The notes beneath the pieces were generated by a model. It saw nothing but the letters and a program-made list of their open reading frames with translations, searched no databases and was not told the origin of the DNA. 41,950 nucleotides of DNA from a virus (taxonomy: Duplodnaviria; Caudoviricetes), in the IMG/VR virus record IMGVR_UViG_3300049174_000096, positions 1 to 41,950 of that record. One strand, given 5' to 3'. How positions within the stretch are numbered: position 1 is the first letter of the stretch; each line of letters starts with the position of its first letter. This document shows, piece by piece, positions 2,941 through 26,258 of this stretch. The position numbers and the translations under genes were made by a program.

Positions 2941-2990
2941 AGAAAAGCATAAAGTTCACCCCATTCTCCCTTATTTGCAGTTATATTCAT
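2928..2990 (-). pseudogene. N-terminal remnant of an HpaII-family restriction endonuclease
   Basis: ATG 2990 overlaps the MTase 3' end and reads MNITANKGEWGELYAFL, then runs into phage sequence (SQF*); matches the NKGEWxExY N-terminal motif of this family as I recall it. Confidence 0.6.
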
Positions 2991-3960
2991 TAATATTTTC
3001 TTTTAATATATTTAGCATGTTTGCTACTGTTGCGCGAATGGGGTTGACGGCTACGCTATTACCTAATTGTTTAAGTGCCTGTGCTTCTGATACAGGAAAT
3101 ATGAAGTCTTCAGGAAAACCCATCATTTTTTTACCTTCTTTTGAAGTAATGCGACGTATTTCGCCATCTACTTCATAGGTGTCCCAGTTTCTGCGATCAT
3201 CAATGCCTGAACCTCGGCCACCTACACGAAGAGTAAAACCGATTTCCTTAGAACAGTTACCCTCAAATACATCGGACATTGTGAATTCTAATGGGATTGG
3301 GTCAGGGAATCTAAAAGAATGACATCCGACAATGTCTTGTCTAAAACCGATAATATAAAGACGTGGTCTATGGGTTGGAAGGCCATAATCCGAGGCTTTT
3401 AAAATCTGGAAGGTTACGGAGTATCCCAGCTCATCTTCTAAAATGTGGCGAATAACCTCAAAAGTTCTACCATTATCGTGATTAAGGAGATGTCGCACGT
3501 TTTCGAGAAAAAATGCCTTCGGGTGCTTTGCTTTGATAATCTTAGCAATTTCAAAAAAAAGAGTCCCTCGTGTTTCAGCAAACCCTTTTTTAAATCCTGC
3601 CTGACTAAAAGGTTGACAAGGAAACCCCCCACAAAGAATGTCAACATTTTCAGGAATGCATGTTTGATTTTCATCATCGGTTATGTCCCCACGAAACATA
3701 TTATTTGTGAATAATTCCGGGGAAATATCTTTGAAATTTTCAATGTATGTTGTTCTTGCATGTGGATCCCATTCGCTGGCATACACGCATTTACCACCGA
3801 GTTGATGCAGTGCTGTGTGAAATCCCCCGATACCTGCAAATAGATCAATAAAAGTGAAGGACGCTTGCTGCTGTGGACAACTGTAAGCGTGTACATTTTC
3901 GAAGGCAAGCGCCATAACTATCACTATTATTCTAGGGTTAAGCATGTTTGTTTTTTCCAA
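2941..3960 (-). mobile_element. ~1020-bp foreign insert derived from a Type II R-M locus (MTase plus nuclease stub)
   Basis: Removing it restores a 195-aa ORF (2761-4368); antisense to the tail operon; no transposase, terminal repeats or in-frame target duplication seen; exact ends uncertain by a few codons. Confidence 0.65.
2971..3960 (-). CDS. dcm: DNA (cytosine-5)-methyltransferase (true start may be ATG 3945 or 3915)
   Basis: Motifs FIDLFAGIGG (I), GGFPCQPFS (IV), ENV (VI), RPRLYIIG (VIII), KQLGNSV (X). Confidence 0.95.
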   Translation of the reverse strand: MEKTNMLNPRIIVIVMALAFENVHAYSCPQQQASFTFIDLFAGIGGFHTALHQLGGKCVYASEWDPHARTTYIENFKDISPELFTNNMFRGDITDDENQTCIPENVDILCGGFPCQPFSQAGFKKGFAETRGTLFFEIAKIIKAKHPKAFFLENVRHLLNHDNGRTFEVIRHILEDELGYSVTFQILKASDYGLPTHRPRLYIIGFRQDIVGCHSFRFPDPIPLEFTMSDVFEGNCSKEIGFTLRVGGRGSGIDDRRNWDTYEVDGEIRRITSKEGKKMMGFPEDFIFPVSEAQALKQLGNSVAVNPIRATVANMLNILKENINEYNCK

Positions 3961-12735: not shown

Positions 12736-13122
12736 TCACCCTCGCTTTAAAATACTTGATATAATTAGCATGCAGTTAGCCAGATCAATAGAGGTTACAT
12801 GATGAAGAGGCAATTTCTCAAGTGTTTCGATTGTACTGTTAAGCGTCTGAATAAGTTCTTCTCGGGTGACTGGTTCCTGGCTATTCTTTGCATTTGGGTT
12901 CTGTTCTGGTTCGCTAGCTTTTTTGTCGTAACGTACCAGTATCTCGTTACCTAGATCATCTACACGAATAAAGTCATCGCTGCCTAGTGGCCACATCCGC
13001 ATAGCAGACCCGTCACAAACGGCGATAGCGCCGCATTTGCAATAGACGATCTCGTCAGGAAGCATGCTCTCTATGATCGCTAAACATTTTCCGCATTTAG
13101 CCCTATTTCGCATGGGTATCAA
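12736..13122 (-). CDS. Zinc-binding hypothetical protein
   Basis: RNRAKCGKC...CKCGAIAV.DG. Confidence 0.7.
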   Translation of the reverse strand: MIPMRNRAKCGKCLAIIESMLPDEIVYCKCGAIAVCDGSAMRMWPLGSDDFIRVDDLGNEILVRYDKKASEPEQNPNAKNSQEPVTREELIQTLNSTIETLEKLPLHHVTSIDLANCMLIISSILKRG

Positions 13123-14039: not shown

Positions 14040-15359
14040 ATGCAAGATCTCCTCTCGGAAAAGCAATGGGAATTCATACTCAACTCAACCGCGCGCTGGA
14101 ATATAGCGCATGGCTCTGTGTCGAGCGGCAAAACTATGGGTATTACCTTCCGCTTCATGCAAGCCGTAGATGCGTGCCTAGACAGCCAAATATGGATGAT
14201 CGGACATACATCGTCAACGGTCTACGATAACGTTGTGCGCCTTATTTTAGAACCAAAATCTGACGGGTTAGATCCGCTGGCTATATTTAGACCTTATTGC
14301 ACCTGGAAAAAGGGGGATCGCGTGCTTTGGTATAAAGATAAAAAGATCTCTACAGTCGGGGCAAAGGACTCAGGAGCTATCGGCGCCATTCAAGGAAAGA
14401 CTATGAGTCTATCCTATTGCGACGAGATGACGCTGTATCCCGAGAACATCATCGATATGATCGATACGCGCCTTCGTAATAGCCATTCCATGGGCTTTGC
14501 TACCATGAACCCAAGCTACCCTACTCACAAGATCAAGGAGTGGATTGACAAGGCAATTGGAGGGGATCCCAACTACTATCAACTTCATTTTAAGCTTGAA
14601 GATAACCCTTATCTAGACCAAGCTTACAAGGATCGCATCAAGAACAGCTTGAGCGGTGTGTTCTATAAACGTAATTATCTTGGAGAATGGTGTCTTGCTG
14701 AAGGTTCTATTTTTGACTTCTTCGATCGGGGTGTTTATGTTCTCAATCGCCCTCCTCGCGCAGCTGATTACTGGATTGTTGGGGTGGATTACGGCACTAG
14801 TAACGCTTTCGCTGCTATTCTTATCGGTGTTAACTGCGGTAAGTATACACAAGAGCCGCCACTAATGTGGGCTGAAAAAGAATACTATTGGGACTCAAAA
14901 AAGACCCAAAGACAAAAGACAAGCTCGGAGTTTGCCGATGACCTCAAAGAATGGATGGAACCTTACGGAGTTAAGTCTGTGTATATTGATCCTAGCGCTG
15001 CTCACTTTAAACTGGATCTCCAGCGCCGGGGTATACATCCAGTTAACGCGGATAACGACGTTAATAACGGAATCATCAAGCTCACTTCAGAAATGAAGGC
15101 GGGGAAGCTGTTTATTTGCTCTGAATGCGTTAATTTGATCAGAGAGGTAGAAGGGTACGTCTGGCATCCCAAATGCAAAGAGAAGGGCGAAGACGAGCCT
15201 TTAAAGCAAAATGACCATGCTATCGACGCGCTGCGCTATGCTATAAATACTCACAGGCCTGCTCGCTTTGATCACGAGGAAAAGAAGCCTCCGAGTTTCA
15301 TGCCTCCAAATTCAACAATAAACCAGATAAGACACCCTAATGATTATGGATTCAGATGA
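14040..15359 (+). CDS. terL: Terminase large subunit (PBSX/Terminase_3-like)
   Basis: Walker A HGSVSSGKT, Walker B YCDE, coupling motif TMNP; nuclease GVDYG, IDPSA and NDHAIDALRY. Confidence 0.95.
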   Translation: MQDLLSEKQWEFILNSTARWNIAHGSVSSGKTMGITFRFMQAVDACLDSQIWMIGHTSSTVYDNVVRLILEPKSDGLDPLAIFRPYCTWKKGDRVLWYKDKKISTVGAKDSGAIGAIQGKTMSLSYCDEMTLYPENIIDMIDTRLRNSHSMGFATMNPSYPTHKIKEWIDKAIGGDPNYYQLHFKLEDNPYLDQAYKDRIKNSLSGVFYKRNYLGEWCLAEGSIFDFFDRGVYVLNRPPRAADYWIVGVDYGTSNAFAAILIGVNCGKYTQEPPLMWAEKEYYWDSKKTQRQKTSSEFADDLKEWMEPYGVKSVYIDPSAAHFKLDLQRRGIHPVNADNDVNNGIIKLTSEMKAGKLFICSECVNLIREVEGYVWHPKCKEKGEDEPLKQNDHAIDALRYAINTHRPARFDHEEKKPPSFMPPNSTINQIRHPNDYGFR

Positions 15360-15607
15360 TACTGCCAATTAATGACCACATCCTCCTAGAGATTGTTCCC
15401 GTCGAAAAGAAGTCGGGTATTCTTATCCTTGATGCTAAAGAAGAAGTAAAACTTCGCATTGCGTCTCTCGGTGCTGTTGCCGATCTTCCCTGCAAAGAAG
15501 GCGATTACGTTCGAATAGAGAAATATAAAGGGACAGAAATAGAGTTGTCCGATAAGCGATACATCATCATTCATCACAAGGATATAATTGCTTATGAGCC
15601 GATATAA
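15356..15607 (+). CDS. groES: GroES/Cpn10-like co-chaperonin
   Basis: LPINDHILLE...KSGILI (mobile loop)...G......KEGD.V...KY.GTEI.....Y.I....DIIA. Confidence 0.8.
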   Translation: MILPINDHILLEIVPVEKKSGILILDAKEEVKLRIASLGAVADLPCKEGDYVRIEKYKGTEIELSDKRYIIIHHKDIIAYEPI

Positions 15608-15648: not shown

Positions 15649-15777
15649 GCCGCCTATCCCATTGGTTGGGTATTGGCAGAGGAGAACTAGTGAAGCAAAC
15701 GTATTTTGTTTCCTTAAGTCGCTCCCGGAAGTCCAATAGCGATGATATCTAGCGGGGTTCGAATCCTTAAGGCGGCA
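15649..15777 (+). ncRNA. tRNA-like RNA with a 56-nt extension in place of the anticodon loop
   Basis: Acceptor GCCGCCT/AGGCGGC plus A; D-like stem CCCA/TGGG; TATTGG/CCAATA stem; long variable arm; GGGG-TTCGAAT-CCTT T arm. Confidence 0.55.
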
Positions 15778-15794
15778 AATTTAATGGAGACCCA

Positions 15795-15893
15795 ATGATC
15801 TGGGGCGTTATCGTTTTCTTTTGGCTTAGGTATCACGGCTCTAGAATAAAGGAGTTGGAAGGCGAGTTACATAGATTAAGGAGTCGCAAATGA
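15795..15893 (+). CDS. 32-aa membrane microprotein (not in ORF track)
   Basis: GGAG RBS; MIWGVIVFFWLRY...; ATGA overlap with the next gene. Confidence 0.45.
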   Translation: MIWGVIVFFWLRYHGSRIKELEGELHRLRSRK

Positions 15894-16615
15894 TTGTCGA
15901 TTGCATAAGTGATCTACATGGATTTTATCCGCAGCTAGAAGGCGGCGATCTTTTAATTGTTGCTGGAGATTTGACCGCAACCCATTCTTTTGAACAACTT
16001 ATGCGGTTCTACTGTTGGTTTGACAAACAGGATTATAAAAAACGTATCCTGATAGCTGGAAACCATGATGGATTATTGGAAGAATTTCCACCTACATATG
16101 GCACTTGGGAATACCTCTGCGACTCGGGCGCTGAATTCGAATATATTGAACCCTCCCTCATCTTTAGCATCAACGAAAAACCAATCATTGGTCTAGGTGA
16201 GACTAAAATCCTAAAAATCTGGGGCTCTCCTTGGACAAAGACCTTTCCCAACATGAATCCCCGCTGCAAAGCTTTTACATGCGATACAGAGAAGGAATTA
16301 AATGAGAAGTGGGCGCTGATTCCCGAAGATGTGGACATATTGATTACCCATAGTCCCCCTTATGGAATCATGGATGCAGTTCAAAGGTATGATTTTGACC
16401 ATAATTCTACCATTGAAAATTGCGGCAGCGTGAGTCTAATGAACCGGCTATATTCAGAGAAGATAAAGCCAAAGCTGCACGTATTTGGACACATTCACGA
16501 AGGCCACGGCCATATCCAAAAGATGATGGACTATCCAGGTGTGCAGTTTGTGAATGCGTCTTATGTCAACGAAAGATATCAGCCAGTAAATAAACCGATT
16601 AGGATCATTTTATGA
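15890..16615 (+). CDS. Calcineurin-like metallophosphoesterase (MPPED/239FB-like)
   Basis: ISDLHG, AGDLT, IAGNHD, LITHSPP, FGHIHEG motifs. Confidence 0.9.
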   Translation: MIVDCISDLHGFYPQLEGGDLLIVAGDLTATHSFEQLMRFYCWFDKQDYKKRILIAGNHDGLLEEFPPTYGTWEYLCDSGAEFEYIEPSLIFSINEKPIIGLGETKILKIWGSPWTKTFPNMNPRCKAFTCDTEKELNEKWALIPEDVDILITHSPPYGIMDAVQRYDFDHNSTIENCGSVSLMNRLYSEKIKPKLHVFGHIHEGHGHIQKMMDYPGVQFVNASYVNERYQPVNKPIRIIL

Positions 16616-24839: not shown

Positions 24840-25378
24840 ATGTCTATTACAACTACGGGTAATCTTGGACCTATGATCTTGCAGTCCCTCGCGCCTGCGA
24901 TGCTCTATGTTCCAACACCCACAATGAACTATATTACGGTCTGCGACAAGGTATCGATGCCAGCTAATGGCGGTACAACTTGCCGTTTTATGAGACCTAG
25001 GGCATTGCAGCCCCCTACTGTCCAATTAGGTAACAGTGGGATTGATCCCCCCGCTCAAGTGCCACAACGCGACATCATTGATGCGCAAATGGCGTTCTTC
25101 GGAACGGGCTGTATTATAAACGAACAAGTCATTTTGCAAGACCAAGAAGGTGTCCTTGCGTGGGTATCTGAGCGTTTGGCGGTCGCCATGCGTCAGGCCG
25201 AAGACTTGATCCTTCGCGACTACATTGTATCTGCAGCTAGCCAAATTAACGCTGGTGGTGGATCCAATGGGGATAACCCAACTAACCTTGGAATCTCTGA
25301 TTTCAGCTTAGTTGCTACAACCCTCGATACAAATAACGCTTATAAATTCATGAGTGGTATCGAAGGTATGGACAGGTT
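24840..25378 (+). CDS. Major capsid protein (N4-gp56-like), exon 1
   Basis: MPANGGTT..F.R...L...FG....I...V......L....L...M...ED.I.RD pattern; ends in GMDR plus TT. Confidence 0.85.
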
Positions 25379-25825
25379 TGACTTACTAGACCTGTATAAA
25401 TCTTCTCTGATAGACTTGGAACTCTTAACTGCTGCATAAGCAAAAGACAACAAGGGGCAAGATTATGGATAGGATGATTTTTTGCCATCCGTGCAAAATA
25501 GAAGAAATGATCGATGATTATTATTCTGACGAATGGAAATGTCCTAAATGTAATCAGCCTGAACGCAGCAAGCGAGAAGACTCTGAGAAAGAACACTATG
25601 ATAGGGGTGCATTTGATCTCAATATCATGGTTCCTTAGAGATGCGGTGCTCTGAACATTGTGGAAACACAGTGAGGGATAAGTAGAGAAAGTCCCCGCCA
25701 ATTAATTATGGTTCCATCGTCTAAAGGGGTTGGTTCCCCGTAGTAGGACGTCATGAAACAAGGAAAATGTCAGTGCAAGCCTGACTGGGGTTTGTTGATT
25801 AATTGGTCAAAAAGTAACAGACAAG
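25379..25825 (+). ncRNA. Group I self-splicing intron (447 nt, no homing endonuclease ORF)
   Basis: P1 ACAGGTT/GACCTGT with U-G at 25378; terminal G 25825; P10 TACTA/TGGTA; P3 TCTTCTC/GAGAAGA; P7; P8 CTCTGAG/CTTAGAG; P9 CATTGTG-GAAA-CACAGTG; removal restores the frame. Confidence 0.9.
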
Positions 25826-26258
25826 TGGTACAGGCCCAGTAAGAAGCGCATATTTTATGCTTTCTTCTACTGAGCTACAAACAGACTTTGATGGTCTTGT
25901 TGGCTCTGGATTCCTTAGCCAATGGAACTATCCTACTAACGCAAGCGCTCTTCCTAGCGAATACGGATCTGTGTTCAATACACGTATCCTGACTAGCTCT
26001 GAAGCGCCAGTTGCACGCGGTGCATCTAAAAATGGTAACGATGTTTACTACAATACGGTATTGGGTAAACAGGCGATCACGCATATCAATCAGGATGGTT
26101 ATTCCATGAACCTGATCTATCGCGATCCCTACTATTCTGGAATGCTCGCACAGAACGCTACTCTTGCCGTGAAGTTTGCTCAAGCGCAAGCGATCACGCA
26201 AGACACAGCTATCCGTAACCTTCTCAGCACCAGACTCTCGTCTGTTGCAGGACCATAA
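25826..26258 (+). CDS. Major capsid protein, exon 2 (spliced product 323 aa)
   Basis: Spliced junction reads DRF-GTGPVRSAYF-MLSSTEL...Y......EYGS...R. Confidence 0.85.

Follow-up and report, generated by a model that had tools for sequence, protein, structure and literature searches.

The RNA gene and its surroundings

The DNA analyzed here, referred to as the window, is the whole record IMGVR_UViG_3300049174_000096 (41,950 bases); labels beginning with L denote the loci and records with which it was compared. The record is complete, with direct terminal repeats; its genes include those of a terminase, of a P22-like portal, and of the capsid and tail. On its plus strand lies a 129-nt tRNA-shaped RNA gene (15649–15777), positioned between a GroES-like gene (15356–15607, plus strand; Pfam PF00166) and a metallophosphoesterase gene (15890–16615, plus strand; PF00149). 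The GroES-like gene ends 41 nt upstream of the RNA gene; it has no tblastn match in the 12 genomes or loci compared, and the other carriers of the RNA are without it. The metallophosphoesterase gene is located downstream of the RNA gene on the same strand in five of the nine carriers and is common in non-carriers too. A 32-codon frame (15795–15893, plus strand) begins 18 bases after the RNA gene and overlaps the phosphoesterase start; as read from the sequence, it has a GGAG site 5 bases upstream and a hydrophobic first half. An open reading frame of 116 amino acids that runs antisense across the RNA gene is not kept in relatives.

DNA contigs from three of four sequencing runs match the window without differences, and one of these runs is possibly its source. 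Of 12 contigs in bacterial bins that carry this portal, one is labeled Simkania and the rest are scattered. A small window protein has matches in 2 of the 200 genomes examined from the phylum to which the Simkania-labeled bin belongs.

Architecture of the window RNA

An earlier note on this DNA had described a tRNA-shaped RNA whose anticodon loop is replaced by a 56-nt hairpin. Reading the sequence finds every stem that it named (the acceptor stem, the D hairpin, a 6-bp stem, and the interrupted 56-nt hairpin) where it had placed them, and also the discriminator A at 15777 with no CCA after it. The acceptor strands, 15649–15655 and 15770–15776, form seven of seven pairs. The gene runs from G1 to the discriminator A, the latter closing the 3′ segment 15770–15777. 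The short D arm (15658–15670) has a 4-bp stem and a 5-nt loop, TTGGT, with the equivalents of G18 and G19; U8 and A14 are absent. A 6-bp stem at the anticodon position (15671–15676 pairing with 15733–15738) carries the 56-nt arm (15677–15732), which consists, in order, of a proximal internal loop, a helix of 3 to 4 bp, a second internal loop with GUC, an 8-bp helix, and a terminal loop, the internal loops being 4–5 × 8 nt. The arm helices are GGAG/CTCC and GAAGCAAA/TTTGTTTC in the window, closed by the loop CGTAT. This pentaloop (CGUAU in the RNA, 15700–15704), with its 5 nt and a C before GUA, is unlike a normal anticodon loop; CGUA is present in all nine sequences of the family discussed below, partly by construction of the searches. 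The arm helices covary, and RNAalifold recovers the arm independently.

The 3′ half departs somewhat from the first description. A long variable region is indeed present (15739–15753), but its pairing is weak in the window copy; RNAalifold predicts two closing pairs, and in five other members the region reads as a stem of 3 to 6 bp. Likewise, the T arm exists (15754–15768, with the loop TTCGAAT at 15758–15764), but its stem has 4 bp and then one unpaired A instead of 5 bp. Two of the window T-stem pairs are G-U. A G-U pair in this stem is present in 9/9 sequences, and the fifth T pair forms in four of the nine.

Detection of the RNA from a single sequence

The window sequence on its own is not beyond chance. 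Its folding z-score is −1.74, with 11 of 200 shuffles folding as well, and the minimum-energy fold lacks the D and T arms (the cloverleaf-constrained fold has −39.3 kcal/mol vs −41.0 kcal/mol for the minimum-energy fold). The folding z-scores of the members, from −1.9 to +0.7, are equally unremarkable. Of the tools that the earlier note had named, ARAGORN, run at default settings, calls zero genes, and Rfam gives zero matches to the window. Only a relaxed ARAGORN threshold reports the RNA, along with 39 other calls. Rfam also has no match for the RNAs of L018, L033, L088, L202, L294, L295, and L130, the tRNA-Sec score of L294 (12.2 bits, E 7.7) being at chance level. Because tRNA finders and Rfam miss the gene, such RNAs are invisible in phage annotation. 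Our covariance model R2 scores the window RNA at 131 bits, with the window in its training set. What lifts the RNA above chance is that eight further distinct sequences show compensatory changes.

Relatives and distribution

These eight sequences come from related phages, giving nine in total and eight lineages. A scan of portal relatives (the best 80 of 346) yielded the carriers L018, L020, L033, and L088 within the fetched flanks. Further members came from motif scans used together with covariance models: L130, L202 (among the best 80 of 179 phosphoesterase loci), L295, and a single sequence common to L291, L294, and L302. Identity is 99% between L018 and L020 and 41–68% for every other pair within the first seven sequences. 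Several search patterns required CGUA, and the invariance of this loop is therefore partly built in; L018, L020, L033, L088, and L202 were found without this requirement.

All carriers are virus records, and their flanking genes resemble those of one phage group (for L291/L294/L302 and L295 judged by eye). The RNA gene is accessory within this group and its presence is patchy. Whole records carry the RNA in 1 of 50 cases scanned with model R1, and 50 more scanned with model R2 contain one clear member; the four other R2 matches were left uncounted (L198, two tRNAs or other tRNA-like RNAs, and a 78-nt match in L288). The neighbor genes and the orientation of the RNA gene vary among carriers. 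None of 10 terminase-relative loci carries the RNA, and blastn gives no match in annotated phages or in plasmids. An exact 22-nt pattern found nothing, and a stem-specific pattern found one unrelated RNA. The first motif pattern returned five members among 51 matches, and later ones 5 of 7 and 10 of 12; of 13 metagenome matches, three are members, all with sequences already known. The RNA was not found in 151 sampled genomes of the phylum of the Simkania-labeled bin, in which some 22 candidates were scored per genome. An arm-like hairpin in L198 (3532–3596, minus strand) and L199 (1301–1364, minus strand), with E about 0.01 and without a tRNA body, was set aside as a probable chance match; it lies opposite the junction of two genes, on the antisense strand, a profile scan over 2.8 Mb places it below E 2, and it was left uncounted.

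Covariation and the D/T elbow

Covariation across related phages, a check for which the earlier note had asked, is found in the acceptor stem, the anticodon-position stem, and both arm helices. With five sequences, RNAalifold returns the acceptor, the D arm, the 6-bp stem, both arm helices, and the T arm; of its 37 predicted pairs, 19 have changes in both partners. In the drawn structure, 93% of the cells pair and 20 of 38 pairs cov­ary, vs 9.9 ± 2.0 in shuffles (0 of 500 as high) and 1–10 with sliding partners; this structure was taken from the window, and the shuffle and slide controls are lenient to related sequences, so that kinship can inflate the counts. A hand parse of five type I lineages (types are defined below; L020, a near-duplicate of L018, was omitted) pairs 158 of 160 cells, with both partners altered in 22 of the 32 pairs. 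Among five lineages, double changes affect five of the seven acceptor positions and all 11 arm-helix positions covary, while the anticodon-position stem keeps 6/6 pairs in all six type I sequences, with five of its six positions covarying. The two type II members keep 8/8 acceptor pairs, six of them changed on both sides. An alignment of all nine fitted by the model has 29 of 38 pairs covarying, a figure biased by the fitting. The covariation shows the secondary structure of the family.

These changes bear directly on another possibility, namely that the gene is a tRNA in decay that took up a random insertion, or that its fold is due to chance. The weak folding z-score and the lack of a default tRNA call would fit such an origin, but compensatory changes occur in every helix between lineages that are only 41–68% identical. 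Unless the alignments are wrong, covariation refutes this reading, and we give it next to no credence.

The elbow leaves a signature of its own. In L033, the D loop has AG (A18) together with G55 in the T loop. Among the ordinary tRNAs in the fetched loci (194 of 205 parsed), G55 goes with AG in 4/4 cases and U55 with GG in 185/190. From the joint swap in L033, which ordinary tRNAs show too, we infer a D/T elbow that forms and is maintained by selection. In the arm, the helices vary freely, while hardly any change is seen in the terminal loop CGUA(U/A), in the bulge strand with GUC, or in the proximal loop rich in A. Free helices combined with fixed bulge and loop bases would be expected where a partner reads the surface or where a tertiary fold requires these bases. 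Acceptor pairs 2–7 vary as well, and the discriminator is A in seven and U in two of the nine sequences; judged from these alignments, the acceptor sequence is shown to be freely exchanged.

An arm at this position could also be an intron, as the earlier note had proposed as one alternative, in which case splicing would give a decoding tRNA. On its 3′ side, the insert has UAA-G/A in eight of nine sequences, like the remnant of an anticodon loop, and tRNA introns are reported for Lak phages (PMC6784885). However, across the members tested no deletion restores a common canonical loop. In the window, L033, and L088, no deletion leaves a loop that has U33 together with a purine at position 37; L018/L020 and L130 permit such a loop, but without a common product; and L295 has A at position 33 (by eye). 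Moreover, there is no bulge-helix-bulge, the internal loops being 4–5 × 8 nt vs 3-4-3, and neither a group I core nor an Rfam match is present; the terminal G is missing in most members, and the loci scanned hold no version of this body lacking the insert. We consider an intron highly improbable.

A transfer-messenger RNA was rejected as well, in agreement with the earlier note. The G3-U70 pair occurs in one of nine members only (L088), the insert is too short for a tag frame and pseudoknots, no frame is open in all members, and neither Rfam nor ARAGORN reports a tmRNA at these coordinates. The likeness to the tRNA-like domain of tmRNA lies in the acceptor, the T arm, and a long interrupted helix replacing the anticodon arm; the present family differs by having a D stem and by lacking tag frame and pseudoknots.

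Two types and their relation to known tRNAs

The insert is 50–56 nt long in all members parsed, and the bodies that carry it fall into two types. In type I (the window, L018/L020, L033, L130, and L295), the acceptor has 7 bp, the D arm combines a 4-bp stem with a loop of 5 nt, and the discriminator is A73; a mostly mismatched eighth acceptor position precedes the 4-bp T stem. In type II (L202 and L294), the acceptor has 8 bp, a tetraloop closes a D stem that reaches up to 5 bp, and the discriminator is U73; the acceptor branch consists of 8 bp, an unpaired A, and 4 bp. L088 is intermediate. The long D stem with tetraloop is present in L088, L202, and L294 and absent in the window. Compared with canonical decoding tRNA (RF00005), the family has the acceptor stem, the T arm, and the D/T elbow in common, but not the 7-nt loop with U33, the U8:A14 core, or the 5-bp T stem.

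Allo-tRNAs are marked by an 8/4 or 9/3 acceptor branch, a long D stem with tetraloop, a long variable arm, and G73 or U73, and type II agrees with published accounts of their 8/4 form (PMC5389517, PMC7609411). The likeness of the family to (8/4) allo-tRNA/tRNA-Ser (Mukai et al., PMC5389517) extends to the 4-bp T stem, the long variable arm, and an anticodon stem of at least 6 bp and, for type II, to the 8-bp acceptor, the long D stem with tetraloop, and U73. In contrast to the allo-tRNAs described there, the family is without the 7-nt anticodon loop, and type I differs further by its 7-bp acceptor with mismatched eighth position, 4-bp D stem, and A73. The closest ordinary bodies found are phage tRNA-Ser genes of 8/4 build (L129, 2994–3255, plus strand), including a tRNA-Ser with a T-arm sequence identical to that of three members. 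We infer from these features a probable descent from the 8/4 allo-tRNA/tRNA-Ser class rather than from tRNA-Leu. The earlier note had called the RNA Leu-like. A73 in seven of nine sequences and the retained elbow agree with this, but the elements U8:A14, A15-U48, and A20a are lacking, and the discriminator is U73 in two members.

The same features bear on charging. The RNA could be aminoacylated (with leucine in type I and serine in type II) and exert its effect by way of translation factors; for instance, it might sequester a synthetase or EF-Tu, or supply an amino acid to a process off the ribosome. According to a study on E. coli LeuRS, the enzyme requires A73 and elbow contacts, and tRNA-Leu truncated by removal of its anticodon arm is still chargeable given A73 and the D/T contacts (PMC9976931); A73 in 7/9 and the intact elbow are thus in line with charging, as is the T stem, with its G-U pair fixed in 9/9. 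Similarly, the traits of allo-tRNAs shared with type II (8-bp acceptor, long D stem with tetraloop, U73, and long variable arm) accompany serylation, according to PMC5389517. Yet there is no identity set common to the family: the discriminator and acceptor pairs vary, G3-U70 occurs in one of nine, and U8:A14, A15-U48, and A20a are absent. Moreover, charging leaves the conserved arm unexplained. We regard this reading as unlikely.

Comparison with other tRNA-like RNAs

A close structural precedent is RNA1 of phage T5; RNA1 and RNA2 are annotated as "tRNA-like stable RNA with unknown functions" (GenBank AY543070). In a predicted single-sequence fold, RNA1 has a tRNA body, a 6-bp stem at the anticodon position that continues into an interrupted hairpin, and variable and T arms. 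It also has a normal Leu-type D arm and sits in the tRNA cluster of a large phage, whereas the present RNAs have a short or Sec-like D arm and a 4-bp T stem and stand alone. In T5, model R2 scores only ordinary tRNAs and T-arm fragments, and the arm profile finds nothing. Hence, the layout itself is not new, given that T5 RNA1 is predicted to fold alike, although its sequence is unrelated.

The bacterial Y RNA YrlA (RF02553; PMC4201824) provides a second comparison. Like the present RNAs, it includes a tRNA-like module that does not decode, with D and T arms plus a long helix where the anticodon arm would be, and it occurs in phages; the motif GNCGAAN0-1G marks it. In YrlA, the T arm precedes the D arm and the acceptor is closed by a loop, while the present family has tRNA order; measured against that description, it is unpermuted, has an open acceptor end, lacks the GNCGAA motif, and its carriers are without a Ro60 gene. 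The resemblance raises the question of whether the RNA is a Y-RNA-like partner of Ro60 in tRNA order. The tRNA-like module with a long stem at the anticodon position would suit such a partner; type I has GUC(G/A) seven bases before RAGU, a spacing as in the YrlA-like RNA of a related phage; and the phage family uses Ro60 with YrlA-like RNAs. However, the GNCGAAN0-1G motif is absent from all nine sequences, and none of the 4 complete and none of the 3 partial carriers has TROVE, compared with 3 of 3 tested records with YrlA-like RNAs. The arm profile matches neither these YrlA-like RNAs nor a Y-RNA-like sequence near a bacterial TROVE gene, and in one candidate host phylum TROVE is over the cut-off in only 2 of 401 genomes. 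A Ro60 partner is therefore very unlikely.

Engineered tRNAs in which a cargo replaces the anticodon stem-loop are expressed in E. coli (PMC3753655). In that design the acceptor, D, and T arms are kept and a cargo hairpin replaces the anticodon stem-loop, as in the present RNAs; the scaffold is man-made, whereas the family is natural and its cargo is under selection. The tRNA introns of Lak phages (PMC6784885) are another precedent for oversized phage tRNA genes. A literature search covering mostly open-access main texts found no description of this conserved and apparently undescribed group of phage RNAs that have a tRNA shape but do not decode. It could be contained in the irregular tRNAs drawn in the supplement of PMC5389517 or in catalogs of structured phage RNAs.

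Transcription, maturation, and cis-acting roles

Elbow, T arm, and open acceptor end are features read by the enzymes that mature tRNA. Our model is that the RNA would be transcribed from the phage gene and excised by host tRNA enzymes, that is, by RNase P cleavage, 3′ trimming, and CCA addition. None of the 37 ordinary tRNAs called in the phage family encodes CCA; the host must therefore add it, and its absence from the RNA gene is no argument against function.

Maturation signals could also be the whole purpose. Acting only in cis, the RNA might serve as an RNase P, RNase Z, or RNase III signal that splits or stabilizes a polycistronic phage mRNA. The spacing suits this: the RNA begins 2–5 nt after the upstream stop codon in L033, L169, and L202, and a start codon lies within 20 nt after it in L169, L164, and L202. 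But the flanking genes differ among carriers, an ordinary tRNA would suffice without a conserved arm, and L294 is antisense to its neighbors. In L294, an 11-of-12 sigma-70 match ends 4 nt before G1 on the strand opposite to the neighbors and hints at a transcript of its own. This match is no more than a hint, because the promoter scan found three sites vs 1.2 ± 1.0 expected; in the window, the scan found no site near the RNA gene. The suggestion in the earlier note of a processing signal in the late transcript thus cannot be the whole story, as one member is antisense to its neighbors behind its own promoter-like site; we consider a role confined to cis improbable.

C4 of P1/P7 is an antisense regulator that matures as a tRNA-like RNA. 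By analogy, loops of the present RNA might pair with mRNA after tRNA-like maturation, and both the fixed terminal loop and the promoter-like site of one member would be compatible with such a regulator. Against this, the longest exact match elsewhere in four complete carrier genomes is 10–12 nt on either strand, the loop and bulge words are not over-represented in these genomes, and the bases adjoining the loop vary. The search covered exact matches in the phages' own genomes. An antisense function is, in our estimation, improbable.

A tRNA body carrying a conserved arm

The alternative that the earlier note had put first, a non-decoding tRNA mimic, gains from the combined observations: the helices covary, L033 swaps the D and T loops jointly, and the members have no common 7-nt anticodon loop. 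The RNA likely cannot read codons. Short of an even chance, but ahead of the readings weighed above, we favor a conserved non-decoding RNA with tRNA-like maturation and an arm that would bind a host factor, its most plausible role being that of a counter-defense decoy. In this model, the mature RNA would be excluded from the ribosomal decoding site, the tRNA body would act as a stable carrier for the binding arm, and the arm would engage a host-encoded partner. With its variable acceptor pairs and mixed discriminator, such an RNA does not appear to be tuned to one synthetase.

No window gene tracks with the RNA, the search for a partner gene having been made among window genes; a 114-aa gene that is apparently common to carriers was dismissed, as it is also found in 25 of 50 records. 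Since no linked phage gene was found, the partner is probably host-derived. Relatives carry ordinary tRNAs, or Ro60 with a YrlA-like RNA, as similar extras, and tRNAs are targets of bacterial defenses (PMC12851939); together with the points above, this leads us to favor a decoy in counter-defense. More speculatively, the partner would belong to a tRNA-directed anti-phage system. We know of no defense nuclease shown to bind such an arm. The fixed arm bases could instead serve tertiary folding. One idea is that the GUA of the terminal loop might mimic the Tyr anticodon. Resemblances to the hairpin ribozyme, K-turn, and loop E, judged by eye against consensus motifs, were discarded because the bases concerned are not conserved.

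A bolder form of this model would make the RNA a natural tRNA scaffold: an aptamer matured by the host that neutralizes a defense or tRNA-surveillance protein and moves as a 130-nt cassette. We consider this possible, though rather unlikely. Should the arm prove to be a decoy for a protein, the family would represent a new RNA route of phage counter-defense and nature's own version of the engineered tRNA scaffold. The family is small in size (130 nt) and has strong comparative support, and the contrast of fixed bulge and loop bases with variable helices constitutes a mutational map. The old question of what stable tRNA-like RNAs do in T5 and other phages thereby becomes testable.

Other unusual features in the phage group

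In the window, the major capsid match (24840–26258) is split over two reading frames about 420 bases apart. In L202, a frame that by eye resembles a homing endonuclease follows the first capsid piece, making an intron possible. Rfam has no match in the window.

Circularly permuted tRNA-like RNAs occur in L078 (12480–12670, minus strand), L063 (13150–13350, minus), L047 (4420–4760, plus), and L035 (6540–6760, plus). Their YrlA scores are weak (27–38 bits, below the Rfam cut-off), and an anticodon-like hairpin is kept. The records L047, L063, and L078 encode divergent TROVE-domain proteins of 438–487 amino acids, and together these RNAs and proteins form a phage Ro60/Y RNA module in this phage family. 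A bacterial genome from the phylum to which the Simkania-labeled bin belongs has, about 100 bases upstream of its TROVE match, a sequence (L262, 6286–6392, plus) that resembles the animal-type Y RNA model RF00019 (29.8 bits, E 0.045).

Further tRNA-shaped genes have enlarged or irregular anticodon arms: L004 (6483–6570, plus), L056 (8324–8410, plus), L289 (~1503–1601, plus), L290 (~1503–1607, minus), L211 (6815–6932, minus), and L235 (~3640–3820, plus). These are unrelated in sequence to the long-armed family, and the phage group has several kinds of such RNAs. L147 carries a 65-nt tRNA-like gene (13047–13111, plus) with acceptor, D, and T arms and no anticodon arm, and a tRNA-like gene in L158 (~2985–3130, minus) has an insertion of about 65 nt in its D loop.
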